Made by a program: the position numbers and the translations under genes | Assembly: GCA_016187335.1 (NCBI GenBank) | Contig: JACPJW010000001.1 | Span: 96,001-160,000, forward strand | From: Candidatus Aenigmatarchaeota archaeon | GTDB lineage: Archaea > Aenigmatarchaeota > Aenigmatarchaeia > GW2011-AR5 | Direction of reading: 5' to 3' | DNA: 64,000 nt | Part shown: positions 373 through 27,237 of the stretch, one piece after another | Numbering within the stretch: the first letter of the stretch is position 1 | Layout of the letters: the number at the start of each line of letters is the position of its first letter | Notes under the pieces: model-generated | The model's input: the letters and a program-made list of their open reading frames with translations, nothing else | What the model was told of the DNA's origin: nothing | Database searches by the model: none

Positions 373-3300
373 ACATGGTGAAGCTTCGCTTCACCTGTAC
401 AGGAGAACCTTCGGTTCTCCATGTATGTGAAACCAGAAATCATGTCCAGATTCTTTTCTGGTTTCCTGTCAGCCGCTTCGGGGTCGCGCGCGTACATCCT
501 CAGGTATTTGATGACGTCCTCCAGTTTCGTTATGTTGTTGTCAAGCATCCAGTTGAGCAGCTTTTTCCTTCTTGAGATGTCCTTGAGTATCGTGTTCATA
601 GGTATCCCTTTCTCCGTGGACAGCCTGCTTAGGACCCATGAACTGCCGTGGTATTCAAAGCTGTCCTCGGCGGGCAGCCATATGAAAACCTTCGCGGCGC
701 GCGCCCTTCCAGTTTCAGGTTCGATGCTCTCTATTTCGGCAATTTCTTTTATGCGCCTCGCTGACTTGCCTTTTTCGCGCGCGTGGACCATGACCAGCAC
801 GACATCCAGCGCGTCAAGAAGCCCCGGCGAAAGGCTTATAGGCTTTGTCTGCAGCCGCTTGATGACATCGTCAACGCTGCCGGCGTGCATCGTTGCCATG
901 GAAGGGTGGCCGGAATTGTGCAATAAAACGCCGCCAAATCCTCCGACAAAATTTTGCTTGCCTGTAACAACCAGATCGTACACGTCAACAGGATTTTCAA
1001 AAGATAGTTTTTCTATATTCCGTACCCTGTCAAAGTATATGTCACCTATTATTTTGCCCCCGCCTTTAGACTTCGTATCCTTAAAGCTGTTTTTTTTCAG
1101 AGGTCTGATATATTTCAAAAATTCTCTTTTGTCATTTACTTTTCCAAATAGCACTTCATAATCCTTTGTGCCTCTTCCTTTTCTTTCCCTTTCAATAATG
1201 GTCGCTACAATTCCATAAACAAGAAGCAACTGCGTCAAGTCGCTGGCAAGCTCTTTGGAAATTGTATAGTATCCGAATCTTTTCCCGAAGGTGCCATCGC
1301 CGTTATACAATCCAGAAAGGAATTTACCTATTTTTTCCTTGCTCAATCCAAATATGAAATCAGGTATTTTCTTTTCCTTTCCATGACCTGCATGCTGTTT
1401 CAGTAGCTCAAAAAGCACCTTGTGGTTGAATGACAGTTCAGTTGAAACACCCCATCCGTGGGTTTCTCTTTCTTTCGGCTCCTTGCCTGTAACTGCCTTT
1501 ATGCATTTCTTCATGTCTTCGATTATTTCAGGTTGTTTTGCATAAAGGCTGATGCGGTTTGATTTCCTGCCCATGTCCAAGCTTCCTTCAGAAATGTAAT
1601 ACCCTACTAATCGCAGCAGCTCAGGTGTAATAGGCAGATGCGCCGGAAATGACTCGCTTTTTCTGTCGTATCTCACTTGTATTTCTTCAGCAGTATACTT
1701 GATACCAGCCGCTTCCATAAGAGCCTGGAATATTTTTAATTTCATGGCTGAAGGCTTTCTTCCAGAAAAATCAGCATAGTAGCTCGAAACGCTCGGGCAT
1801 ATTCTGCACGCTGCTTCGTATCCGAGTTTCCTGACAGCCTCCCTAACAAGCTTAGGTGCGTAAACCCTGCAGTCTATAAGCAATTTCGTAATATCAAGGT
1901 GCTCCAAGTCATTAAGTCCTGCCGGAAGTCTTGCAGGAATTAGGACAACGCTCCCTTCCTTTAGTTCCTCGGTTCTAGAAACAGTTATTTTCCCATTCTC
2001 AAAGGAAAACAAAGAATGGTCTGGTGTAGTTATTACACTTCTTCCTGTCCGAGTTGTTATTTTATAAAGCTCCCTTCTTGGGGCGTGTTTTCGCTTCTGG
2101 AAAGGCATTAATTCTATTTTGAACTTGTTCGTGTCAAGGGCAGGTACTCTGAAACTTGTCCGGGGCTCGAGCTTTCCGATAGGTATCCGCTTAAGCTGGT
2201 TGTCGTTCAAGATCAATACTTTCTCTTCTGCCGGAATAGAAGCCATTGCCTGGAACATGACGTAAGCTTCCTTTCCCCTTATCTCGCCTACGATGAGGTA
2301 GTCGGGGTTCTGCCTGAACGATTCCTTTAGCAGTTCGAACATTGAAACCTCGCCGACGCCGCTGCTGCCGAAGGATGTTCTCGCAACGCCGGGTATCCAG
2401 TTCTCGTGCGGCAAAGAAAGTTCTCGCGTGTCCTCTATGCTAACGATTTTCGCTTCTTCCTTTATGAACAGCGAGAGCGTGTTGAGTATTGATGTCTTGC
2501 CCGTAGCGACCCCGCCTGTTATCAGCACGTTCGCGCCGTTCTCGACAACAAACCACAGGTAGGCGAGCATTTCCTCAGAAGCTGTCCCGAGCTTTATCAT
2601 GTCAACAGGGTTGAACGGCGTTTCCCTGAACTTCCTGATGGAGAACGTGGGCCCTCTTGTCGTCACGTCGCTGGCTATTGACGCCTGCACTCGAGTGCCG
2701 TCAGGCAACGAGCCGTCCAGCAGGGGCTCAGCGTAGCTTATGTACCTGTCGCACCTCTCCGCAAGCTTCGTGACAAAATTTCTCAGCTTGTCAACGTCGC
2801 TGTAGACGATGCTTGTTTTTATTGAGCCGTATTTCTGGTGGACGATGTAAACGTTGACGGAAACCCCGTCGCAGCCTATGTCCTCTATGTAGGGGTCGTG
2901 CAGGAAAGGCTCTATCTCGTTGAGCCCGATGAAGTCGCGGTAGATGTAGTACATTATTTTTATCAGCTCGATGTCGCTCAGCTTGAAGTCGTACTGCTTC
3001 ACCAGCATGTCTATGTTTTCCTCAAGGAATTCCAGGAGTTTCTGCTCGTTCTTCACGTCGCCGAGGCTCACTTTTATCACCTGGACAAGCCCCTCCTTCA
3101 GCTTCTCAAGTATGTTTTTCTCTTTGCTGGTCAGCCTGGGCTCTGTGATCTTGTAAACAAGGGAGTGCTCCAGGGGGTCCCATTTTATGTTCGCGTAGGA
3201 ATAAGGCGGTATAAGAGGGTATATGACTCCCGTGCGCTTCACCTCTTCCGGCGACGGCAGCGTTTTCAAGGTTTTCACAGGAATGATGCCGAACTTCAGG

Positions 3301-3428
3301 CCTTCCTTGTTCCGCGCCTTTATGGCGTAAATCATCTCGGCCGCCCTTGAGTTAAATACAGGAGGTTTTTCACTTTTTGATATCTTCCTGTAAAGGGCTC
3401 CTCTCAGGCTTTTTATTTTGTCGAGCAT
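369..3428 (-). CDS. Type II/IV secretion (archaeal pilus/FlaI-TadA-like) ATPase containing an intein
   Basis: Walker A GGVATGKT, Asp box IEDTREL, Walker B LIVGEIRG, His box SGHPSMATMHA after intein removal; GGTGG Shine-Dalgarno upstream of the ATG. Confidence 0.93.
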   Translation of the reverse strand: MLDKIKSLRGALYRKISKSEKPPVFNSRAAEMIYAIKARNKEGLKFGIIPVKTLKTLPSPEEVKRTGVIYPLIPPYSYANIKWDPLEHSLVYKITEPRLTSKEKNILEKLKEGLVQVIKVSLGDVKNEQKLLEFLEENIDMLVKQYDFKLSDIELIKIMYYIYRDFIGLNEIEPFLHDPYIEDIGCDGVSVNVYIVHQKYGSIKTSIVYSDVDKLRNFVTKLAERCDRYISYAEPLLDGSLPDGTRVQASIASDVTTRGPTFSIRKFRETPFNPVDMIKLGTASEEMLAYLWFVVENGANVLITGGVATGKTSILNTLSLFIKEEAKIVSIEDTRELSLPHENWIPGVARTSFGSSGVGEVSMFELLKESFRQNPDYLIVGEIRGKEAYVMFQAMASIPAEEKVLILNDNQLKRIPIGKLEPRTSFRVPALDTNKFKIELMPFQKRKHAPRRELYKITTRTGRSVITTPDHSLFSFENGKITVSRTEELKEGSVVLIPARLPAGLNDLEHLDITKLLIDCRVYAPKLVREAVRKLGYEAACRICPSVSSYYADFSGRKPSAMKLKIFQALMEAAGIKYTAEEIQVRYDRKSESFPAHLPITPELLRLVGYYISEGSLDMGRKSNRISLYAKQPEIIEDMKKCIKAVTGKEPKERETHGWGVSTELSFNHKVLFELLKQHAGHGKEKKIPDFIFGLSKEKIGKFLSGLYNGDGTFGKRFGYYTISKELASDLTQLLLVYGIVATIIERERKGRGTKDYEVLFGKVNDKREFLKYIRPLKKNSFKDTKSKGGGKIIGDIYFDRVRNIEKLSFENPVDVYDLVVTGKQNFVGGFGGVLLHNSGHPSMATMHAGSVDDVIKRLQTKPISLSPGLLDALDVVLVMVHAREKGKSARRIKEIAEIESIEPETGRARAAKVFIWLPAEDSFEYHGSSWVLSRLSTEKGIPMNTILKDISRRKKLLNWMLDNNITKLEDVIKYLRMYARDPEAADRKPEKNLDMISGFTYMENRRFSCTGEAKLHHV
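371..426. repeat. Branched palindromic element translated as the C-terminus of the ATPase
   Basis: Outer stem ATACATGG/CCATGTAT encloses GGTGAAGC-TTC-GCTTCACC and GGAGAACC-TTC-GGTTCTCC. Confidence 0.8.
915..2240 (-). mobile_element. Intein (442 aa) with LAGLIDADG homing endonuclease
   Basis: Starts SIPAEEKVL (Ser1). Block B TPDH, endonuclease blocks LVGYYISEG and FLSGLYNGDG, block F VYDLVV, ends VLLHN followed by extein Ser. Removal gives FQAMA-SGHP. Confidence 0.95.
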
Positions 3429-3436
3429 CAGTCCAC

Positions 3437-3497
3437 CTTTGACCAGACTTTTTGGTCAGATTTTTTTTTGATCAAACTTTTTTTCCAAAAAAGTTTG
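3437..3497. repeat. Family-1 palindromic repeat (CAAACTTTT..AAAAGTTTGATCAAAA on the minus strand) plus a variant CTTTGACC..GGTCAGA
   Basis: Same module as at 8177, 8264, 8325, 8355, 17654 and 59824-59976. Confidence 0.85.
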
Positions 3498-3788
3498 CTA
3501 TTGGTTGCTTTCTTCGTCTCTTCCGAAGCGCGAGCCCCTTGAGCGGCCGATTTTCACAATGCCGCGGAAGCGCGCGCACGAAGGGCATACGTACATCTTC
3601 CTGCCGAACGTTGAAACAAATCTGCGGTCTATCTGTTTCCTCAGGACAGGGTCGGTAATCCTGAAGCTCTTGATAACGCTTATCGTTTTCCATCTCGGGA
3701 CGCTTTTGCTGCAGTAACCGCACGAGACGGTGGATTCGTGTCCCTTTGACTTTGTGTGATGATATCCTCTTTTGTAAGGTGCCGGCAT
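3498..3788 (-). CDS. rps26e: Ribosomal protein S26e
   Basis: KGH...V.CGYC...VPRWK...CPSCARFRGIVK zinc-finger pattern of S26e; ATG at 3788 preferred. Confidence 0.85.
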   Translation of the reverse strand: MPAPYKRGYHHTKSKGHESTVSCGYCSKSVPRWKTISVIKSFRITDPVLRKQIDRRFVSTFGRKMYVCPSCARFRGIVKIGRSRGSRFGRDEESNQ

Positions 3789-3865: not shown

Positions 3866-4948
3866 ATGGGAGCAGCGACATCAGGAAATATTGAAAAAAT
3901 CCTCGGGGAGAAGGCGCCTCTTATTGACAGAACAATAGAAAAATACCTGCCGAAGAAATACAATGAAAAATCGATGGAGTTTACGTTTGGAAAGGCAAGA
4001 TACCGCTTCAGCGCTGAAGCCGCGGACAAGGCACTGGCCGTTCCCGTATGGGACCTGCTTGGCAGGGGCGGCAAGAGGTGGCGCCCTTTTCTTTTTCTCA
4101 CAACCTGCGAAGCGCTTGGCGGGAATCCTAAAAAATTTCTTGATTTCGTCGCGCTGATTGAACTCATACATAATGGGAGCCTTATCATTGACGACATCGA
4201 AGATAGCAGCGAATTGAGAAGGGGAAAGCCCTGCACGTACAAAATTTTCGGCACGGACACTGCCGTAAACGCCGGCAACTTCATGTATTTCGCACCACTT
4301 CTTGTCTTGCTAAAAAGTAAAATGCCTGAACAAAAGAAGCTCCGCGCCTACGAAATTTATGCGCAGGAACTCATCAATATCCATCTCGGCCAGGCCATGG
4401 ACATTTTGTGGCACCGCGGGATTGCCGAGCCTGCTGGAGAGCAGGAATATTTGCAGATGTGCGCGTTCAAGACCGGCACATTAGCAAGGCTAGCCGCGAA
4501 GCTCGGCGCGCTGTGCGCCGGCGCCGATGAAAAAACAATGGAAACAATGGGCGCGCTTGCCGAATCCTTGGGCGTCGCTTTCCAGATACAGGACGATGTC
4601 CTCAACCTCACCGCCGCAAGCAACAAGGGCCAGTTCGTCAAGCATTATTTGGGCGAGGACATCCATGAGGGAAAAAGAACTTTGATGGTAATCCGCACGC
4701 TTGAAAAAGCTTCCGCAACCGACAGGAAACGCTTGGTAAAAATTTTAAGCATGCACACGTCTGACAAAAAACTTATTAATGAAGCCATAGCAATATTGAA
4801 TAGATACGGCGCGATAGATTATGCAAAAGAACGCGCGAAAAGCATTGTGAAAAAGTCATGGGGCGAAGCTGACAAAATCCTCAGGTCTTCGCAGTCAAAG
4901 GATAACCTGAAAGCCCTGGTCAGCTTTGCAATAGAAAGGGAATTTTAA
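3866..4948 (+). CDS. idsA: Polyprenyl (geranylgeranyl) diphosphate synthase
   Basis: GGKRWRP, first Asp-rich motif IIDDIED..ELRRG, GQAMD, FKTG, FQIQDD. Confidence 0.92.
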   Translation: MGAATSGNIEKILGEKAPLIDRTIEKYLPKKYNEKSMEFTFGKARYRFSAEAADKALAVPVWDLLGRGGKRWRPFLFLTTCEALGGNPKKFLDFVALIELIHNGSLIIDDIEDSSELRRGKPCTYKIFGTDTAVNAGNFMYFAPLLVLLKSKMPEQKKLRAYEIYAQELINIHLGQAMDILWHRGIAEPAGEQEYLQMCAFKTGTLARLAAKLGALCAGADEKTMETMGALAESLGVAFQIQDDVLNLTAASNKGQFVKHYLGEDIHEGKRTLMVIRTLEKASATDRKRLVKILSMHTSDKKLINEAIAILNRYGAIDYAKERAKSIVKKSWGEADKILRSSQSKDNLKALVSFAIEREF

Positions 4949-8445: not shown

Positions 8446-9191
8446 TACAAAACCTTCCTCCCGAAAGTGATGAATCCGGTGTGCACAATCTGGGAGGGAC
8501 GGGGATGCGTGTAGTCGCTGACCTGCCAGTCGACCTGCTGCGTTGATATCGTTTTTATCTGCGCGAACTTGTTCTTTTCCAGCTCCTTCACAGCCCTTTT
8601 CTGCTGCTCGATGTGCGGTGAGTAGATGCAAAGCCATCCGCCGCTTTTCAGCGCTGTTTTGCATTTTTTCACCATCTTGTCCGCGTCAATCATGTCCAGC
8701 GTTATCATGTCCAGGTTTTTTTCCGTAAAGCGCTCCGCCGGCTTGTTTTTTATATTCACTGTGCCAGCAAGACCACAGAACTCTATGTTCCTTTTTGCGT
8801 TCTCGTAGAATTTCTTGTTCTTCTCGTAAGTTGTTACGGAGCCGCTGGGCTTTACGATATTGCCGAGGAATATTGACAGGAAAGCAGAGCCCGTGCCTGC
8901 ATCAAGGCAGTGCCAGCCGCTGCTTACGCCTGTGTGCGCAGCTATCTGGCCGGCGTCCTTGGGCATGATTATCTGCGGCATCCTCTTTGCCTTGCGAAGC
9001 AAATCCAGTATGGTGGGTTTTAGCACGACAAATTCGTGGCCGGTGTTGCTTTTCAGAACCTGGCCGTATTTCTTTATTTTCGTAAGGTCAAGAAGACCGT
9101 AATTCGTTGAAAACTTCTTCTGCGCAATGTCGGCGATGAAAGAACGCTCGCCCAAAAGAAGAATCTTGCCCGACGGTTTTTCTTTTTTCAT
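8445..9191 (-). CDS. trmI: tRNA (adenine-N1, A57/A58) methyltransferase TrmI/GCD14
   Basis: PQIIMPKD, DAGTGSAFL SAM-binding motif, LDM, YSP.IEQ. Confidence 0.9.
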   Translation of the reverse strand: MKKEKPSGKILLLGERSFIADIAQKKFSTNYGLLDLTKIKKYGQVLKSNTGHEFVVLKPTILDLLRKAKRMPQIIMPKDAGQIAAHTGVSSGWHCLDAGTGSAFLSIFLGNIVKPSGSVTTYEKNKKFYENAKRNIEFCGLAGTVNIKNKPAERFTEKNLDMITLDMIDADKMVKKCKTALKSGGWLCIYSPHIEQQKRAVKELEKNKFAQIKTISTQQVDWQVSDYTHPRPSQIVHTGFITFGRKVL

Positions 9192-9421
9192 AAAAATCCC
9201 CTTAGCGCCATTACGATAAAAAGTATCGCGAGAACAGCGGAAATGACTATGGCAATTTTCACCAGCTGCGGGTCGTTGCCGAAGCCGAACGGGATGAAAC
9301 CAATCACCCCGCCCACGGCGACCTTTCCGTCGCTTTTTCCTGTTAACGTGCCTACGAAAACAAGAAGGAATCCTAAAAGGATCATTGCGATGCCGATGGA
9401 AACTATATTTATCTCTGCCAT
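9188..9421 (-). CDS. Small membrane protein, DUF131/TIGR00304-like
   Basis: Hydrophobic, with GGVIGFIPFGFG motif; ATG at 9421 preferred. Confidence 0.7.
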   Translation of the reverse strand: MAEINIVSIGIAMILLGFLLVFVGTLTGKSDGKVAVGGVIGFIPFGFGNDPQLVKIAIVISAVLAILFIVMALRGFL

Positions 9422-9453
9422 GATTCTTCTATTTGCTGATAAGATTTTAAACC

Positions 9454-9915
9454 ATGCAGGCAATTTTTATCATGCCTTTAAGGAAAAACGGCTGCATTGA
9501 AGGCGTCACCTTTGCTTTTGTAAGGAAAGGGAAAATACTGGCTGAAATAAGAAACAGGAGAAACCGTTCAGAAATCATGATACCTTCAGGAATAATAGAA
9601 AAATCTGATGCAAAGAATGGCGACTACAGGATAGCTGCGCTGAAAAGGGAAATCAGGGAAGAAATGAATGTTGATGCAGAGGAATTCGTTTATCTTGGAA
9701 AATGCAGGCTGAGGACACGCCCTCTGGTCATGCATGTCTTTCTTATTAAAAAATGGAAGGGAGAAATACCAAGCCATACAGTGGAAAACGGAAAAAAAGA
9801 TTCAAGGCTGGTTTGGTTCCCGCTTGACGAGAGGTATTTCGTAAGGTACGGCTCGAATTTCACCTGCAGGAAAGTCCTTGAATACCTGAAAGCTGGATCG
9901 TCATCAAAGAAATAA
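9454..9915 (+). CDS. NUDIX hydrolase
   Basis: Nudix box G..E......ALKREIREE. Confidence 0.8.
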   Translation: MQAIFIMPLRKNGCIEGVTFAFVRKGKILAEIRNRRNRSEIMIPSGIIEKSDAKNGDYRIAALKREIREEMNVDAEEFVYLGKCRLRTRPLVMHVFLIKKWKGEIPSHTVENGKKDSRLVWFPLDERYFVRYGSNFTCRKVLEYLKAGSSSKK

Positions 9916-21136: not shown

Positions 21137-21246
21137 GCTTGGATAATTGAAAGCAGCGTTTTAAACGATATTGTAGGTTAACAAACCATAATAGCGATAG
21201 TGTTGCAGGAAGCGTGCTGTAATGTGCCTGTTGCGTAATTGTTGTT

Positions 21247-21681
21247 TTATTCATTGCTATCTAAATAACTTTCTATTTCAAGAATTGTCTTTACAAGAAT
21301 CTTCGGATAAGCATCTGGTTGGAATAGTGTCGTTATCATTTCTTTTTGTTCATCGTTTAGCACAACAAGATAAACATATTGTGCATCTCTTAATTTCAAT
21401 GCGTGGAAGACCATTGAGTTCATTTCATCTCTTTCTGAATCATCTTCCATGCGGTCAATATAAGCATCTAACCTGAGAAAAAATTCTTTGGCTTTTTCTG
21501 GACTATTAAATTTTTCTTTGAAAGCCTTTTCTGTTTGTGTCGTAACTCGGGCTTTCATTCCGTTATTACTCAAATGATCTAAGAACTTGAGTAGGATTAG
21601 TCTTTCACGACAACTAATTTCTCGTCTTTTGAGTTGTGCAAGTACAGAAGAATGGGGGAAAAATTCTCTCACCGTTGCCAT
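21247..21681 (-). CDS. Passenger protein, possible degenerate PIN-like domain
   Basis: FFPHSSVL resembles PIN (F/L)DSSV; RDAQYVYL resembles DA.h.a; coupled by TAATG to the upstream ORF. Confidence 0.5.
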   Translation of the reverse strand: MATVREFFPHSSVLAQLKRREISCRERLILLKFLDHLSNNGMKARVTTQTEKAFKEKFNSPEKAKEFFLRLDAYIDRMEDDSERDEMNSMVFHALKLRDAQYVYLVVLNDEQKEMITTLFQPDAYPKILVKTILEIESYLDSNE

Positions 21682-21884
21682 TACTCATCACGTTCATCCT
21701 CAGGCAACGCTTTCATGAGCCACTCAGACGGCATGCCCTCTAATTCTTCCCATTCCACGCGGAATACGGGATTGAAAATTTTTTTTACGGCAAAGCCTTT
21801 GTGGTTTTTAAACTGAGCCCTAATCTCGTCTGGTAATTCTTGAATCTTATATACTTCATAGCCAACTAATCCCATATCACTCAC
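21681..21884 (-). CDS. Small passenger protein, possible antitoxin
   Basis: 67 aa, GAGGTGA SD, acidic C-terminus, overlaps the downstream start. Confidence 0.55.
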   Translation of the reverse strand: MSDMGLVGYEVYKIQELPDEIRAQFKNHKGFAVKKIFNPVFRVEWEELEGMPSEWLMKALPEDERDE

Positions 21885-22131
21885 CTCACTTTAATTATAT
21901 ATAAATGCTTGTCGCCAAGGGTAATAAAGATTTGTGTCCCAGTGTAATTGCCGTGTAATTCTGACCACAAAGTAAGAAAAGATTGAATACTTGCTGTTAA
22001 TTAGCACCTAAAATTATTTAATATCAAGCTGATAGGGTCAAGTGTCCGAATCGTCATCGTGCATATTTGTAGGTGCTACTGGTAGTGGTGGTAGGGCTGG
22101 TATAGCGCTAGTAGCGCAGGTCAGGAACTAA

Positions 22132-22335
22132 ATGTCAGACAAGACCGCTCAGGCATGGTCTAACGGCTTTCGGGTTTATTACAACTACATCCGTCCGCAC
22201 ACGGGCTTAGACGGGCTGACACCAGCACAGGCAAGCGGTCTTAACCTACCGCTTGAACAGAACAAGTGGCTGAGCCTCATAAAAATGTCAAACCAGCCAC
22301 AAATTGAGGCATCAACAAACGTGCAACAGGGGTGA
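22132..22335 (+). pseudogene. C-terminal fragment of a DDE (IS6-like/integrase core) transposase
   Basis: YYNYIRPHTGLDGLTPAQA motif; lies just inside the right IR; catalytic N-terminal part absent. Confidence 0.8.
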
Positions 22336-22550
22336 AAAACAGCAAAAAATCAACACTTCCTGCAACAAAGCCATAATAGCATGGTTTTTTATATTTAAAC
22401 CCTAAAAATACCGAAACCTTTAAATACTTTACGCCATAATGTTACCTTTTGTAATATTCCCGTAAATTTTCACTTTTTAGGAGTGAATGGGAATAAAGTG
22501 GGTTGTGGCTTGCAGTTACTAACCTACTTATTGAAGCAAAGGTGTGAAAA

Positions 22551-22796: not shown

Positions 22797-23726
22797 ATGG
22801 CAGCAAAATGTCCTGAATGCGGTTCAAAATACTTTTACGAAGATCCTGAAAAAGCGGAGAAGGTCTGCGCGAAGTGCGGTCTTGTTATTGAGCACAGCAT
22901 GGTCGACACGGGCCAGGACTGGCGCGCCTTCGACCACGACCAGAAAGTCAAGCGCGCAAGAACAGGCGCTCCGCTTACGCACAAGCGTCATGACAAGGGT
23001 TTGACTACAGAGATAGGCAAGGGAGCAACCGAGCTTTTCAAGGTCCCGGCTAAAAAGCGCTCCCAGTTCTTCAGAATAAGAAAATGGCAGAAGCGTTTGC
23101 TTACAAGCAAGGACAGGAACATGTCCTTTGCCCTGTCGGAGCTCCAGAGGCTTGTTTCCTTCCTGGGCCTGCCGAAGACGCTTCACGAGGAAGTCGCGAA
23201 CCTCTACGAGAAAGCCCTGCAGAAGGGCCTTGTTCGCGGAAGAAGCATTGAAAGCATTATTGCCGCTTTAGTTTATGCGCTCGCGCGCGAATACGAGACG
23301 CCAAGGACGCTGACCGAGATTTCACAGGCATCAGGTATAGGCAAGCGCGAGCTTGGCAGGACTTATCGTTACATCTCGCGCAAATTGAGCATCAGAATTC
23401 TCCCGGCGAGAGCGGAAACATACATACCGCGCTTTTCCTCGATGCTGAAGCTTTCCGACCGCGTCCAGATGCGCGCAATAAAGATACTGAAAATCGCCAA
23501 GGAAAAGGACGTGATAAGCGGCAAGGGCCCTACGGGTTGCGCTGCCGCTGCTATTTACATAGCCAGCGTGCTTGAAGGTGAGCGCAAGACCCAGCGCGAC
23601 GTCGCTGACGTAGTCGGTGTGACAGAGGTCACCATACGCAACCGCTACAAGGAGATGGCCGAGGCGCTGGACATTGAGGAAGAGGTAGAGCGCAAAGCCA
23701 AGGAAGAGGAGAAGGCCGAGGTTTGA
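22797..23726 (+). CDS. tfb: Transcription initiation factor IIB
   Basis: CPECG..VCAKCG zinc ribbon, DWRAF B-reader, two cyclin repeats, VTEVTIRNRYKE. Confidence 0.97.
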   Translation: MAAKCPECGSKYFYEDPEKAEKVCAKCGLVIEHSMVDTGQDWRAFDHDQKVKRARTGAPLTHKRHDKGLTTEIGKGATELFKVPAKKRSQFFRIRKWQKRLLTSKDRNMSFALSELQRLVSFLGLPKTLHEEVANLYEKALQKGLVRGRSIESIIAALVYALAREYETPRTLTEISQASGIGKRELGRTYRYISRKLSIRILPARAETYIPRFSSMLKLSDRVQMRAIKILKIAKEKDVISGKGPTGCAAAAIYIASVLEGERKTQRDVADVVGVTEVTIRNRYKEMAEALDIEEEVERKAKEEEKAEV

Positions 23727-23753: not shown

Positions 23754-24347
23754 ATGAAACTAAGATTGCTAGCCGAAGAAATAACAAAAGCAGAGACTAT
23801 TGAATACTTAGCTGAAGGTGTAAGAAGAGTCGTTCCTGTTCATTTAGATTTTTCGGTAATCGGTGAAAGATATTCTAAAGGTAATGTATGGATGTGCAAT
23901 TTACATCATATAGGTATTAAATTCGTGCCTCCAAATTTAGACGAATACCTGTTAATTCTAACGCATTCACCATTTTCTTACAGGAGGAAAGATATCTCCG
24001 ATCGATTTGAATGGATTGGGAACGCCCACGAAATTAGCTATGCTGGATTATGTGATAATGAAAGTAGAATTCTCATCGTTGGCGGAGACAATTCTCCGAG
24101 TAATGGTAATGTTAAGGTTGCTAGCCATGAAATAGCTCATGCAGTTTTAGGTTATCCCGTAACTTGGGATTTTGAATCTATTCATTGTAAAAATTTTATT
24201 GGTAGCAAAAGATGTGTAATGAATACCGTACAGGAAGTAGGTCAGGGAGTAGGTAGAGACCTCGAAGAATTGTACTTAGGGTTTTGTCAGCCATGCACCG
24301 ATGCAATGAAAGAAGTTGAAAAAAATAAATTCACTCCAAAATCCTGA
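23754..24347 (+). CDS. Archaemetzincin-like Zn metalloprotease
   Basis: HEIAHAVLG...HC....CVM...FCQPC. Confidence 0.65.
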   Translation: MKLRLLAEEITKAETIEYLAEGVRRVVPVHLDFSVIGERYSKGNVWMCNLHHIGIKFVPPNLDEYLLILTHSPFSYRRKDISDRFEWIGNAHEISYAGLCDNESRILIVGGDNSPSNGNVKVASHEIAHAVLGYPVTWDFESIHCKNFIGSKRCVMNTVQEVGQGVGRDLEELYLGFCQPCTDAMKEVEKNKFTPKS

Positions 24348-24365
24348 CGTCATCCACGACGCCGT
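24331..24365 (-). repeat. Orphan copy of the 3' end of the 26317-27237 gene
   Basis: 31 bp (24335-24365) identical to 26321-26351; continues GAG TGA versus GAA TAG, so both copies encode ...GVVDDVRILE*. Confidence 0.92.
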
Positions 24366-24370
24366 GATTT

Positions 24371-25045
24371 TTACATCTGCAATTTCTCTATTCTCAAAAT
24401 CAGATTCGGGTCAGGGCACAATTTCAGGTATTTTTCTCTTTGCTCTATGCTGGCAACGCCGGGGAAATCTCCCTTCATTCCATGCATGTCCGCGATTACC
24501 TGGAAATGAAGGTGCTCGAACCACTGGCCGTTAACACTAAAATTGCCTATCTCCCCGATAGCTTCGCCCATTTGGATTTCCTGCCCTTCTTTTCTGCCTT
24601 CCAGAGACTCCTCGCTTAGATGTCCGTAAAGCGTGTAAAATACCGTGCCGCCAAGCTCATGCTGCAGGATTATTGTAGGACCGTAATCGCCGTGTCCTCT
24701 GTTATTGTGGAAGCTGTGAACAGCAGCGTCAAGCGGCGAGAATATTTTTGTTCCGGCAGGCAGGATCACGTCGATTCCAAGATGAATTGTCCTTTCGGCA
24801 AAAAGGCTGCTGTGCCTGTAAATTGTCCTGTCCTCGTTGTATCTGCCAATGCCAACTGCCGCATTGTTTAGCCGCAAGGTTTCTTTCACGCATCTGTCAA
24901 ATTCTTCGGCAGATCTTATGTCTATTTTCCGCAGCTCCTCATTGTCTTCAGTGAAATCGAAAACAAATATTTTCTCTTTGTTTAGGTCAAAAGAAATTAC
25001 TCTGCCTATTCTGTCTTTATTTCTTCTCAGAATTTCTTCCAGCAT
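24371..25045 (-). CDS. M23 family metallopeptidase
   Basis: HLGID (HxxxD), YGH and EHLHFQ (HxH) motifs. Confidence 0.85.
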   Translation of the reverse strand: MLEEILRRNKDRIGRVISFDLNKEKIFVFDFTEDNEELRKIDIRSAEEFDRCVKETLRLNNAAVGIGRYNEDRTIYRHSSLFAERTIHLGIDVILPAGTKIFSPLDAAVHSFHNNRGHGDYGPTIILQHELGGTVFYTLYGHLSEESLEGRKEGQEIQMGEAIGEIGNFSVNGQWFEHLHFQVIADMHGMKGDFPGVASIEQREKYLKLCPDPNLILRIEKLQM

Positions 25046-25049
25046 TTTC

Positions 25050-26045
25050 TCACCTCGGTAGAAACCAGACGTTAAGGTCTTCGTAAGGCCCTTCCACTTC
25101 TACGTCCCTGTCAGCGTCTATCCTGCAGTGCCTGTTCAGCCTTCCTGCGTATCGAAAGCCAAGGTTCGCTGACTGCTGGTTGACGCCGCGCGAACAAGCC
25201 CTGTCCTCTTCGAAAATAAGGTGAATGTCATTGCCGTATCTTCCAAGAAGCTCGTTTACAAGCGTGGCAACGCATGCCTGGTTCAGTCCGTTGCTCCTGT
25301 GACTAGGATCCGTAGCCTCGTCGCTGAGCTCGCTTATTCTCAGCAACCCTCTGCTTGTTTCGATCTCTGCTATTTCTGCTATTGCAACGGAAACAATGCT
25401 CCCGGAACCATGTCTTGCTAAAGCTACTATAGAAGTGGGTGTTTCGACCAATTCTGCTACATTTTCTTCAGTGAGAGGAAAAACGTAGTCTCTGTAAACT
25501 GCCTGGTAAAGCCTGAAAAGTTGCCTTATGTCCCCGTCACTTCTTATTCCAAGCTCTGTTACGTAGCCTCTTTCGGAAGCCTTTGAAAACGGGTCTCTTG
25601 AAGTAGCTGTTCTTAGCGATTCAAAAACTATTTCATCCTCTTTCAATACCGCATTTCCCTGTTCGATTCTTCGGGCGGAGTTTTCTCCGAAATATTGAAC
25701 CCCGTATCCTTGCCATTCTCCGCTTAAAGGAATGTATTCCGTCTCAAATCCCCGGCTGTAAAAATTTCCCAGCGGAGAAAAGCAATTTGGTTTTCTTATT
25801 CCAGACGATGCCAAGCATGTTCGTTCTGCTAATGGATATCTTGTTACGAATCTGAGCGTTATTCTGGATGCATATCTCCAATCTCTTACGATTCTTGCTT
25901 GTTCTATGAACGGCATAGCTCCATCAGAATGTTCAAGAACAGTTGTGCAGAATCCTTTCACCCTGTCGTTATGCCTGTCAAAAACAGGCTCTCCTATTCT
26001 ACCTATTGAACTGGCGCTTTGATATTCACCCTGCATTGTTATCAA
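25050..26045 (-). CDS. GNAT acetyltransferase resembling beta-lysine N-acetyltransferase (AblB-like)
   Basis: ELSDEATDPSHRSNGL (acetyl-CoA motif), RA.S.GVN..S.NLGFRYAGRL..HC.I, EDLNVW. Confidence 0.7.
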   Translation of the reverse strand: MITMQGEYQSASSIGRIGEPVFDRHNDRVKGFCTTVLEHSDGAMPFIEQARIVRDWRYASRITLRFVTRYPLAERTCLASSGIRKPNCFSPLGNFYSRGFETEYIPLSGEWQGYGVQYFGENSARRIEQGNAVLKEDEIVFESLRTATSRDPFSKASERGYVTELGIRSDGDIRQLFRLYQAVYRDYVFPLTEENVAELVETPTSIVALARHGSGSIVSVAIAEIAEIETSRGLLRISELSDEATDPSHRSNGLNQACVATLVNELLGRYGNDIHLIFEEDRACSRGVNQQSANLGFRYAGRLNRHCRIDADRDVEVEGPYEDLNVWFLPR

Positions 26046-26256
26046 CTCGGCTATTAACTACAGCGTAAAGCAGTTTTCTTCTTCTGTCAGAAAACGAGAA
26101 TGATTCCGCAATTGCTTTCCGCCTTCTGAGCACGGAAATATTGTACCTTAGAGTTCTCTCTGGAACTCTGATTGATTCGCGCAACTGGCGGATATTCATA
26201 GGTCTAGAAGAAAGAGCTTGTAGAATTCTTCTCTGCAGGACGCTTTTCACGTTCAC
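26026..26256 (-). CDS. Winged HTH DNA-binding protein
   Basis: RILQAL...MNIRQL...IRVPERTLRYNISVL. Confidence 0.7.
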   Translation of the reverse strand: MNVKSVLQRRILQALSSRPMNIRQLRESIRVPERTLRYNISVLRRRKAIAESFSFSDRRRKLLYAVVNSRVDNNAG

Positions 26257-26316
26257 CCATCGGAATCACTTGCACTTCATGTACGTGCACACTTTTATTC
26301 CTTTTCATAGCGGCAA

Positions 26317-27237
26317 CTATTCCAAAATCCTGACGTCATCCACGACGCCGTCGTAATCGCTGTCCAAGCCAAGGACAACGTGCGCGTTCTTTTTCTGTAT
26401 TTCATCGAAGCGCTTGAGAAGAGCAAGCACGGCCGCGCGCGTTCCTGAAAACCTTTTCCCGGCTATGAGCAGCAGCTTGCTTTTCCGGTTGAAAGGGTTG
26501 TCCGCCTTGACGATGATGCCGCACTCGTCGCTCCTATAAGTTTTTTTCGTGAGCGATGAGTAGATGTTCTTTTTTGCGTCGAACCGGACGGGCAGCTTGT
26601 CATTGACCGCCCTGGTTATCCTGTTTATGACGGGCCCGCCGATTATTATCAGGTTTTCTTTTACCTCATGCAATTCCGTGTCAAGAACAACAGAAGGCTC
26701 GCTTTTGTTAAGGAACGTTCCCAGAAACAGCGCAAGGTCTATGGCATAGGAAGCATCGCGTGAGCGGGCGCGCTCAGGGCCGTGAGGGTCAGGCGAGCCC
26801 ACGACGATCTTCGCATTGAAAACGCCTTCAGCAATGAAGGGTTCAAGGAATTTGTTGGCTGTTTTAGGAATTTTCTCCGTCTTCTCAAAGTCGCGGAATT
26901 TCAGGAAGAAAGAAGGCTTTGTCAAAACATAAATTTTTGCCAATGTTCCTCCTCTTTCCTCTTTCCTCAGGACCCTTATGATTCCTTGCTTCTCTAGGTT
27001 ATGTACATGGTAGTAAACCTTCTGCTCGTGCATGCGCAGTTGCGCAGCCATTTCCTTGGGGTACGAAGGTTTTTTCGCGAGGGAATGCAGGATCTTCATC
27101 GCCGTCTCAGAAAAATCGGCCTTGCCAAGCTCCGCCGAGGGCAGCGCCAGCACCCTGCCGTCTTTTTCTTCAACTACAAATGCCATTATAACCACAAGTC
27201 TCTTTTGATTGAACTTTGGAGCAGCAAAGTTCATCAC
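26317..27237 (-). CDS. ArsR-type HTH protein with a C-terminal S-layer-like domain (start may be ATG 27186)
   Basis: YPKEMA..L.MHEQKVYYH HTH; IVVGSPDPHG, NLIIIGGPVINRIT, AGKRFSGTRAA. Confidence 0.7.
   Translation of the reverse strand: MMNFAAPKFNQKRLVVIMAFVVEEKDGRVLALPSAELGKADFSETAMKILHSLAKKPSYPKEMAAQLRMHEQKVYYHVHNLEKQGIIRVLRKEERGGTLAKIYVLTKPSFFLKFRDFEKTEKIPKTANKFLEPFIAEGVFNAKIVVGSPDPHGPERARSRDASYAIDLALFLGTFLNKSEPSVVLDTELHEVKENLIIIGGPVINRITRAVNDKLPVRFDAKKNIYSSLTKKTYRSDECGIIVKADNPFNRKSKLLLIAGKRFSGTRAAVLALLKRFDEIQKKNAHVVLGLDSDYDGVVDDVRILE

Follow-up and report, generated by a model that had tools for sequence, protein, structure and literature searches.

The window, a stretch of 64,000 nucleotides from the genome of Candidatus Aenigmatarchaeota archaeon (GCA_016187335.1, here G000), contains a regulator gene and a TFB gene arranged tail to tail, with a 197-aa ORF and a three-gene operon (the cargo) between them (Table 1). 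The host is a tiny archaeon from groundwater. The regulator as called is a protein of 289 aa starting at 27186; it is conserved across the phylum, with orthologues of at most 65% identity in 32 of 41 relatives, and alignment of the tails gave a conserved ending, DxDxDGxxDxx..LE-stop. In the relatives, TFB is 83-93% identical and is likewise convergent with the regulator. The gap between the two genes is variable in every genome and contains unrelated ORFs and hairpin repeats; among relatives having both flanking genes on one contig, it measures 75-1957 bp, or 2572 bp in genome G004, and the cargo genes are absent from the site in all of them.

Table 1. Features between and including the TFB and regulator genes (positions within the window).
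Feature	Position	Strand	Remarks
TFB/TFIIB gene	22797..23726	+	PF00382 (E 2e-43), PF08271; bounds the variable gap
197-aa ORFan	23754..24347	+	metzincin-like HExxHxxG motif; outside the repeat bracket, its end inside the distal tail copy
Distal orphan tail copy	24331..24365	-	GVVDDVRILE, GAG TGA; exact repeat part 24335-24365
Spacer, M23 stop (24371-24373) to distal tail copy	24366..24370	-	5 nt
Cargo gene 3, 224-aa M23-type metallopeptidase-like protein	24371..25045	-	PF01551 (E 2e-15); NF004799 (E 6e-48, residues 4-221)
Cargo gene 2, 328/331-aa protein with C-terminal GNAT domain, AblB-like	25050..26045	-	TIGR03827 (E 9e-16, under cut-off)
Cargo gene 1, 76-aa winged-helix (wHTH) regulator	26026..26256	-	GTG start; HTH_20 (E 1e-5, under Pfam cut-off)
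Cargo operon leader	26257..26316	-	60 nt; similarity to the L163 module begins at TTGCCGCTAT, right after the regulator stop
Proximal tail copy (present regulator end)	26317..26351	-	...GVVDDVRILE, GAA TAG; exact repeat part 26321-26351
Target regulator gene	26317..27237	-	306 aa by ORF; HTH (ArsR/HTH_20) and PF05124 (Pfam)

The 197-aa ORF has no match in Pfam or NCBIfam, is present in none of 69 other genomes of the order, and has a GC3 of 0.27, which is the 2nd percentile of the genome. It was considered as a member of the bracketed element and rejected, lying beyond the repeats and having no relatives.

The duplicated end of the regulator gene

The initial annotation of the window had reported that the last 35 nt of the 306-aa gene recur 5 nt after the M23 stop, that 31 bp are identical, and that the remaining changes (GAA to GAG, TAG to TGA) preserve a glutamate codon and a stop. 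All of this is borne out: 32 of 35 bases are alike, 31 of them contiguous and exact, the exact repeats are spaced 1986 bp apart, and both copies read RILE-stop, so recombination between the copies would, as that annotation also proposed, leave an intact gene. Two matches of 31 nt were obtained in none of 100 dinucleotide shuffles, and with up to three mismatches allowed the repeat has only these two copies across the 1,014,551-bp genome (1.01 Mb, contig C2 included). All three differences between the 35-nt copies sit within the 4 nt immediately past the 31 identical bases, and at the opposite end of the repeat the similarity breaks off abruptly; together these give the pattern of a crossover inside a core site. 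The dyad symmetry of the repeat is weak.

The regulator gene has been rebuilt at the proximal junction, where insert-side bases finish its last codon and provide its stop; judging by the bases of the two copies, the last 4 nt of the proximal copy probably come from the insert. The distal copy has no gene body upstream, belongs to an open frame of 18 codons and overlaps the last four codons and the stop of the plus-strand 197-aa ORF. It is probably the original host gene end, the repeats forming an attL/attR-like pair of junctions.

A genome-wide check of G000 found no orphan downstream copy of any other gene's end; the idea that this genome duplicates gene tails habitually was therefore rejected, the remaining matches being tandem paralogues. 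Exact searches for the 31-mer in metagenome, genome and viral collections gave zero matches, the degenerate tail pattern had no match in viral contigs, and neither a tRNA nor a known RNA was detected in the region.

The bracketed operon

The assignment of the three cargo genes to the wHTH, GNAT and M23 types holds up by the matches given in Table 1 and, for the second, by its fold. The GNAT protein has no Pfam match, but an AlphaFold2 model (pLDDT 90), whose top Foldseek matches are GNATs (E 1e-7), confirms a GNAT fold at the level of predicted structure. About 20 homologues of this protein occur in DPANN archaea and metagenomes, and none in the 69 other genomes of the order. Homologues of the wHTH protein, 54-58% identical, are encoded upstream of a GNAT gene in metagenome contigs L163 and L178, and homologues of the M23-type protein, 63-69% identical, adjoin GNAT homologues in L163, L165/L176, L170 and L178. 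The M23 domain is of the cytoplasmic type found in the middle of PRK06148; a role as a viral cell-wall lysin was rejected on account of this type and of the pairing with GNAT in several DPANN contigs.

The entire three-gene operon is also present in L163, at a different locus, with amino-acid identities of 54, 61 and 69%, and is flanked there by homologues of G000 genes at C2:536-538 kb; the leader region aligns with the L163 module at 77% over 79 nt (blastn). Elsewhere, the operon is an ordinary chromosomal one without flanking repeats. Cargo GC3 is 0.40-0.51, versus a genome median of 0.58. The insert is foreign and lineage-specific, and the cargo is a captured operon of chromosomal type rather than a self-contained mobile element. 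It lies flush with the repeats, 0 nt from the proximal and 5 nt from the distal copy, which makes random decay of a larger element a poor explanation.

Recurrence in other genera and the assembly record

When 371 genomes of the phylum were searched with a degenerate pattern, close pairs of regulator tails came up only in G000, G004 and G018. In G004, which belongs to another genus, the regulator end is followed by a UPF0175/RHH and DUF3368-PIN toxin-antitoxin pair (0.87 kb) and then by a second end, which is identical to the first at 27 of 36 positions and still reads NGIVDTVRILE-stop; the first bases of this second copy, ACGGC, are those of the orphan copy in G000, and they lie 1 nt past the cargo stop. 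In G018, of a third genus, two regulator ends are 141 nt apart with no gene between, and nine of the 12 sites at which they differ are third codon positions (P 0.004). The duplication of the regulator end around a toxin-antitoxin pair and around no gene at all is newly described here, and the independent use of this end in two further genera makes it a recurrent landing site. A possible fourth case, G123, was rejected as two redundant contigs that are 95% identical. Distant regulator orthologues at 75 loci from JGI metagenomes have no second tail, and contigs of G019, G008 and G028 that end near the tail have neither an extra tail copy nor a link to integrase contigs. In G019, a VapBC-like pair stands immediately after the regulator tail.

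Other assemblies were used to weigh the possibility that the arrangement in G000 was created by the assembler, which would have threaded a free circle of 1,986 bp, with the 31-mer in common with the chromosome, into the contig although the chromosomal site is empty. Short-read contigs built with k=31 have the same outcome for an integrated element as for a circle plus an empty site: in such assemblies of at least four runs the cargo stands alone as a contig of 2,015 bp, both of whose ends consist of 30 nt from the repeat, and four of five contigs with the 197-aa ORF stop inside the repeat, so that the assembly graph alone is ambiguous. The fifth of these contigs, however, from an independent k=31 assembly (L019/L023, SRR12113430), spans TFB, the 197-aa ORF, the repeat, M23 and GNAT; it runs through the left junction, and the integrated form therefore exists. 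The insert contains no replication gene, and G004 has the same architecture with end copies too unlike each other to confuse an assembler. Neither an empty site nor a circle nor a free element bearing attP came to light in the contig and collection searches, and an exact protein look-up, in which contigs with an empty site or the right junction were sought, found the full-length regulator of 289 aa on no contig but the genome's own; there is thus no recorded contig with a complete regulator at an empty junction. An artefact is accordingly extremely improbable.

Insertion at the gene end

Pfam and genome-wide recombinase searches found no recombinase in or adjoining the insert, as the initial annotation had stated for integrases, and none stands beside any of the three tail duplications. 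The sole tyrosine recombinase of G000, a zinc-ribbon protein of 457 aa encoded at C2:737506-738876, is 615 kb away. Of 44 genomes of the family, 24 encode tyrosine recombinases of mobile-element type, which have a zinc ribbon and a patchy distribution and are frequently present in several copies at 25-37% identity; G000 and G004 have one each, and G018, a genome that is 88% complete, has none detectable. No integrase-bearing element was found at the regulator gene end among 20 loci of relatives, a thin sample, with gaps of up to 2.6 kb. Att-like repeats were also sought around the G000 integrase, and only palindromic repeat families of the genome surfaced.

The description of the locus as att-like agrees with the bracketing of the foreign cargo by a duplicated gene end, the cargo-free sites of relatives and the presence of other cargo at the same end in G004. 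The explanation that fits best, with a probability only a little better than even (about 0.55), is that a non-autonomous, CIME-like cassette, equipped with its own gene end and stop, was inserted site-specifically at an att-type site by a recombinase acting in trans. The 1,986-bp segment would be a horizontally acquired operon (wHTH, AblB-like GNAT and M23-type protein) that entered by att-by-att recombination within the last 11 codons of the regulator gene, the incoming DNA having borne its own copy of that gene's end. At the proximal junction, the regulator would have been rebuilt with its last glutamate codon and stop taken from the insert, while at the distal junction the original end would remain as the orphan 35-nt copy overlapping the end of the 197-aa ORF. 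We infer that a recombinase mediated the event in trans: insertion and any excision of the cassette would rely on an enzyme encoded elsewhere, for which the only candidates seen are the zinc-ribbon tyrosine recombinases of the family, including the one in G000.

Att sites of Crenarchaeota are 29-69 bp long (PMC6563490), and the 31-35 bp of the present repeat fit the archaeal range, which supports the att reading. The initial annotation had set a protein-gene target apart from the tRNA genes expected of such sites; the regulator gene is indeed the target, but among archaea such targets are nothing out of the ordinary: of 68 integrated elements in Thaumarchaeota, 14 lie in the 3' parts of protein genes (PMC6563490; reviewed in PMC8371274). 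These elements resemble the G000 insert in having direct repeats derived from a gene end, the last bases and stop of which are replaceable, and one that supplies its target's stop codon has been described (PMC6563490); their targets include an AsnC-family transcription-regulator gene, comparable to the regulator here. As described, they differ in being tens of kilobases long with an integrase of their own and mostly shorter att sites (median 17 bp), whereas the G000 insert is 2 kb and has none. As in gene-end att integration generally, the repeats are at the 3' end of the target, the target is kept intact and relatives (of other species) have an insert-free site; what the G000 insert lacks is its own integrase.

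A closer likeness is offered by the CIMEs and microCIMEs of streptococci, which are found at the 3' ends of rpmG, rpsI, fda and rplL and have att copies that repeat a protein-gene 3' end but no integrase or transfer genes (PMC7563491). A CIME is recognised by the retention of both att sites and the absence of recombination and transfer genes, and the G000 insert shows both. CIME cargo is 1.2-13 kb and, like the present cargo, of metabolic, stress or toxin type, and microCIMEs are gene-less and 130-220 bp long; the present cases, at 2.0 kb, 0.87 kb and 141 bp, correspond to these two classes. CIMEs are, however, defined as deletion derivatives of ICEs or IMEs, occurred in that study only in tandem with such elements and move by accretion and conjugation (PMC7563491), whereas at the regulator end searches gave neither a parent element nor a cognate integrase, the cargo directly adjoins the repeats and the hosts are DPANN-type archaea. 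Tycheposon-type islets are likewise small, integrase-less sets of foreign genes between copies of gene 3' ends that recur at the same gene in related genomes, but they belong to bacteria and often occupy tRNA genes, whereas the present case is archaeal and at a protein gene.

Insertion with no recombinase is a lesser possibility, though one to be taken seriously. Foreign DNA, circularised or linear, that happened to include a related regulator end could have entered by general homologous recombination, with a single Campbell-type crossover on the 31 bp; alternatively, the joining could have been of the homology-facilitated illegitimate kind or have used microhomology. The duplicate would then be a by-product instead of an att site. 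Such an origin would agree with the absence of a recombinase in or beside all three duplications, with the normal chromosomal setting of the cargo operon elsewhere, and with the variable TFB-regulator gap, whose unrelated ORFs and hairpin repeats suit a permissive spot; the tail copies of G004 and G018 diverge in a coding-like manner, which fits an end taken from another lineage's gene. Against it, the orphan copies of G000 and G004 start at the same bases, with the cargo ending 1-5 nt before, and random fragment ends would not be expected to coincide in two independent events. Identity of 27 of 36 bases in G004 makes homologous recombination unlikely, only the regulator end is affected in G000, and among the 371 genomes only this family shows such pairs. 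The foreign DNA would, moreover, have had to carry just the last 11 codons fused directly to an unrelated operon.

A target-site duplication, in which some transposase- or Cas1-like enzyme would have made staggered cuts about 31 nt apart that were then filled in by repair, is highly improbable. The perfect identity of the G000 copies over 31 nt would suit it, as would the targeting of 3' ends of archaeal protein genes by casposons (PMC6563490), but the cargo ends have no terminal inverted repeats and the insert no transposase or casposase, the marks of transposons and casposons, and neither Cas1 nor a serine recombinase was found in the G000 genome. The insert would also have had to begin with A-TAG by chance (roughly 2%) to complete the codon and stop, and the two copies in G004, at just 75% identity, both retain a readable gene end and stop codon. 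Known target-site duplications are about 14-15 bp or shorter, which counts further against this origin.

Integron cassettes and Xer-dependent (IMEX, pdif) modules are small recombinase-less units, often toxin-antitoxin, for which an enzyme encoded elsewhere performs the insertion at a single docking site. The present cassettes are like them in comprising one to few genes that end in a putative recombination site, but a cursory look revealed no attC-like fold, and there is neither an adjacent IntI (or other recombinase gene) nor any sign of dif-like inverted arms; what is repeated is the end of a coding gene, copied in direct orientation, and there is one cassette per locus. That the regulator end is the docking site of an integron-like system, in which free cassettes (promoter, operon and 31-36-nt end mimic) would be inserted and removed by a tyrosine recombinase in trans and exchanged between genera, is thus a speculative and rather unlikely extension of the att-type reading, although it would explain the differing cargo at the same codon across genomes.

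To our knowledge, few mobile elements have been recognised in ultra-small DPANN-type archaea, and their gain of accessory genes is poorly known. The end of this regulator gene has served on at least three occasions, across three genera, for the uptake or exchange of small gene sets, represented by a metabolic operon, a toxin-antitoxin pair and an empty scar, none of which carries a recombinase; the impression is of a docking site that small recombinase-less cassettes have used repeatedly. Under either reading, the locus provides exact junction sequences that can be checked in existing read sets. If a trans-acting enzyme is responsible, the 31-35 bp would be a compact, portable docking site and the inserts an archaeal counterpart of bacterial CIMEs and cassettes; if no enzyme is involved, the locus would be an example of gene gain driven by very short homology in reduced genomes.

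The duplicated gene end and its insert

The duplicated gene tail reported in the initial annotation is present as described: two copies share an exact direct repeat of 31 nt at a spacing of 1986 bp and are identical at 32 of 35 bases overall. None of 100 dinucleotide-preserving shuffles yielded two matches, and the whole 1.01-Mb, two-contig source genome (G000) contains only these two copies when up to three mismatches are allowed. In minus-strand reading, the right copy forms the 3′ end of the 306-codon ORF of the regulator gene (289 aa in its database form, with a start at 27186) and reads ...DYDGVVDDVRILE followed by GAA TAG; the left copy, not preceded by any gene body, begins 5 nt past the stop of the M23 gene and reads GVVDDVRILE, ending in GAG TGA, so that glutamate and stop are kept. 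All three differences fall within the four bases directly beyond the 31 identical ones, and similarity stops sharply at either side. On every point that could be checked, the earlier description was right.

Coordinates of features in the window and in the loci compared with it
Feature	Location	Strand	Size	Remarks
Low-GC stretch just upstream of TFB	window 21188-22380			GC 0.34-0.43
TFB/TFIIB gene	window 22797-23726	+
197-aa ORF	window 23754-24347	+	197 aa	between TFB and left copy, outside the repeat bracket
Left copy (orphan)	window 24331-24365	-	35 nt	exact repeat 24335-24365
M23-family gene		-	224 aa	PF01551
GNAT gene		-	328/331 aa	C-terminal half, TIGR03827, E 9e-16, below cut-off
Winged-helix gene		-	76 aa	HTH_20, E 1e-5
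Right copy	window 26317-26351	-	35 nt	exact repeat 26321-26351
Conserved regulator C-terminus	window 26317-26360; orthologues in L004-L014, L070-L149	-		D-x-D-x-D-G-x-[IV]-D-x-x-[ERK]..LE-stop
Regulator gene	window 26317-27237	-	306 codons
Duplicated regulator end, G004	L047 (G004:C10) 8698-9600
Tandem regulator end, G018	L063 (G018:C98) 861-1079
Gene pair after regulator, G019	L173 (G019:C3) 3949-4600
Maf-like gene and 126-aa membrane ORF	L169 (G000:C2:534000-540500) 2686-3653
DPANN gene cluster	L178 1764-4303; also L164, L165, L031, L032
Tyrosine recombinase	G000:C2:737506-738876 (L044 1195-2568)	-	457 aa
tRNA-like direct repeat	G000:C2:490886 and 491727 (outside window)		33 nt	exact

In public k=31 assemblies of this organism, at least four runs yield a 2,015-bp contig with 30 nt of the repeat at each end, and most contigs with the 197-aa ORF end inside the repeat, but any 31-bp repeat breaks contigs in this way in a k=31 graph, where an integrated element and a circle plus an empty site are indistinguishable. 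In a single contig (L019/L023, SRR12113430), sequence is continuous from TFB across the 197-aa ORF and the repeat to the M23 and GNAT genes, in favour of an integrated state; no recorded contig shows an empty junction with a complete regulator gene. This contig, which reads through, and a parallel arrangement in another genus (G004) make an assembly artefact highly improbable.

Every relative with both genes on one contig has TFB next to the regulator in convergent orientation, and a nucleotidyltransferase and GlmS lie on the regulator's other side in relatives as in the window. The TFB-regulator gap, taken from stop to stop, ranges from 75 to 1957 bp among relatives and reaches 2572 bp in G004 and 2590 bp in the window, and its content is unrelated between genomes. 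Among 69 other genomes of the order, the GNAT gene was found in none and the M23 gene has weak domain-level matches only; cargo GC3 (0.40-0.51) lies below the genome median of 0.58. By gene content and composition, the insert is foreign to this site. The low GC of the stretch just upstream of TFB (0.34-0.43) points to several foreign pieces in this neighbourhood.

The bracketed genes and their other contexts

The initial calls of the three cargo genes as wHTH, GNAT and M23 are borne out by their domain matches and, for the second, by a predicted structure. The GNAT protein has no Pfam match; TIGR03827 corresponds to AblB, a putative beta-lysine N-acetyltransferase, and the AlphaFold2 model (mean pLDDT 90) retrieved only GNAT acetyltransferases in Foldseek. 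Because it matches over its full length the middle domain of large cytoplasmic PRK06148-type proteins (E 6e-48), the M23 protein is unlikely to act as a secreted wall hydrolase. The 197-aa ORF, whose final four codons and stop fall within the left copy, contains HEIAHAVLG (metzincin-type HExxHxxG) and several cysteine pairs; it matches no family, lacks relatives across the order (69 genomes), and has a GC3 of 0.27, the 2nd percentile of the genome.

The same three-gene operon occurs on a JGI contig (L163) with protein identities of 54, 61 and 69%; there it lies between a 739-aa gene and a secretion-system-F-like gene, both with homologues in G000 at C2:536-538 kb. The space between these two homologues is filled in G000 by a Maf-like gene together with a 126-aa membrane ORF of low GC, which makes the position a second variable slot. 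DNA similarity between L163 and the window starts at TTGCCGCTAT, directly past the regulator's TAG, and therefore the left edge of the insert is known to within a few bases. L178 also carries the complete operon, adjoining a conserved divergent 218-aa gene, and the GNAT-M23 pair is found in at least three further contexts, including Nanoarchaeota and Aenigmatarchaeota MAGs; flanking repeats were found in none of these other contexts of operon or pair. This distribution shows that the cargo is not peculiar to a mobile element. Together with (wHTH-)GNAT(-M23), the divergent 218-aa protein, which has no assigned function, makes up a conserved DPANN cluster, and the G000 cassette is without this partner.

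The regulator end and its duplication in other genera

The regulator consists of an ArsR/HTH_20 winged-helix domain followed by PF05124, and has homologues in 32 of 41 relatives (best orthologues 65% identical). Its last 11 codons form a DxDxDGxxDxx..LE-stop tail that aligned tails show to be kept far outside the family, out to distant archaeal lineages. This C-terminus looks like an EF-hand/DxDxDG calcium-binding loop, suggesting a metal-sensing tail of the regulator, a predicted role that may be the reason for the strong DNA-level conservation of the site.

In G004, of another genus in the same family, a 41-nt leader separates the regulator orthologue from two cargo genes, the first UPF0175/RHH antitoxin-like and the next DUF3368 PIN-like; 1 nt past the cargo stop lies a second gene-end copy that is identical at 27 of 36 bases and still reads NGIVDTVRILE-stop. 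The orphan copies of G004 and the window begin at the same bases, ACGGC, and in both a lineage-specific plus-strand ORF enters the orphan copy from the TFB side. This toxin-antitoxin pair between two regulator ends is a second, independent case. A staggered-cut target duplication would agree with the perfect 31-nt identity in the window, but it is improbable: terminal inverted repeats and a transposase are both lacking, the length would be unusual, and the G004 copies are too divergent while both stay gene-like.

In G018, a gene end of about 80 nt is repeated in tandem with no gene between; the distal copy abuts the TFB stop and is split by a 60-nt double hairpin of a MITE-like repeat family with at least 11 copies in that genome. 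The copies differ at 12 sites, and nine of these changes affect a third codon position (binomial P 0.004). The coding-like differences in G004 and G018 are suggestive, at the sequence level, of ends of different lineage origin; they are not used as main support because later divergence could explain part of them. By a degenerate tail pattern, two nearby same-strand copies occur in only three of 371 genomes of the phylum (G000, G004 and G018), and no second copy was found in 75 more distant orthologue loci from metagenomes. No other gene in G000 has an orphan copy of its own end downstream. A candidate fourth case, G123, was rejected as contig redundancy. In G019, an AbrB/SpoVT-like and PIN (VapBC-like) pair directly follows the regulator stop, on a contig that ends 36 nt further on, before any second copy would be visible; the start of the TFB contig of this genome (L179) is full of hairpin repeats.

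Recombinases and the proposed origin of the insert

As initially noted, an integrase is lacking: the insert encodes no recombinase, and the sole tyrosine recombinase of G000 lies 615 kb away. That protein has its catalytic domain at residues 188-356 and a C-terminal zinc ribbon, and no att-like repeats were found around its gene; neither a serine recombinase nor Cas1 was found in the genome. Related tyrosine recombinases occur in 24 of 44 genomes of the family, patchily and often in multiple copies (six matches in G003), with 25-37% identity, a pattern typical of mobile-element enzymes rather than a housekeeping Xer. One is present in G004 and none was found in G018, whose genome is 88% complete; no relative examined has an integrase-bearing element at the regulator's end. 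Elsewhere in G000, a sequence resembling the T-arm and acceptor part of a tRNA 3′ end occurs twice as a direct repeat with a spacing of 841 bp, which may represent a further att-like duplication or a pair of paralogous tRNAs.

Recombination without a recombinase, by a Campbell-type crossover on short homology or by homology-facilitated illegitimate joining, would account for the absent integrase and for cargo of an ordinary kind. This is nevertheless a rather unlikely explanation, leaving unexplained why the orphan copies of G000 and G004 start at the same bases, why this gene alone is affected, and how 27/36 identity was enough in G004.

Read from sequence, the locus bears the classical hallmarks of integration into the 3′ end of a gene: an identity core with unrelated sequence beyond both sides, and an element-borne last codon and stop. 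These features, the foreign insert and the recurrence in G004 uphold the att-like reading first proposed. In the favoured interpretation, with a probability of roughly 0.55, a non-autonomous, CIME-like cassette would insert site-specifically within the regulator's last 11 codons, at a position used repeatedly, with a recombinase supplied in trans, and the regulator's last codon and stop would be replaced by the element-borne version. Archaeal elements integrate in protein genes, including a regulator gene, bringing a new stop codon (PMC6563490; PMC8371274), and crenarchaeal att sites span 29-69 bp (PMC6563490), a range that takes in the 31-35 bp of the window repeat. The closest described systems are streptococcal CIMEs, which hold 1.2-13 kb of cargo between att copies at the 3′ ends of rpmG, rpsI, fda or rplL and have no integrase, and microCIMEs, with 130-220 bp between att copies and no genes (PMC7563491); they are paralleled by 2.0 kb in the window, 0.87 kb in G004 and 141 bp in G018. 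The fit is imperfect, as CIMEs are deletion derivatives of larger elements, whereas here the cargo is flush with both repeats, at distances of 0 and 5 nt in the window and of 1 nt in G004. Since random deletion would rarely leave such flush edges, the insert resembles a defined-end cassette more than a random deletion product. This would be an archaeal case of an integrase-less gene-tail cassette, with recurrence across genera.
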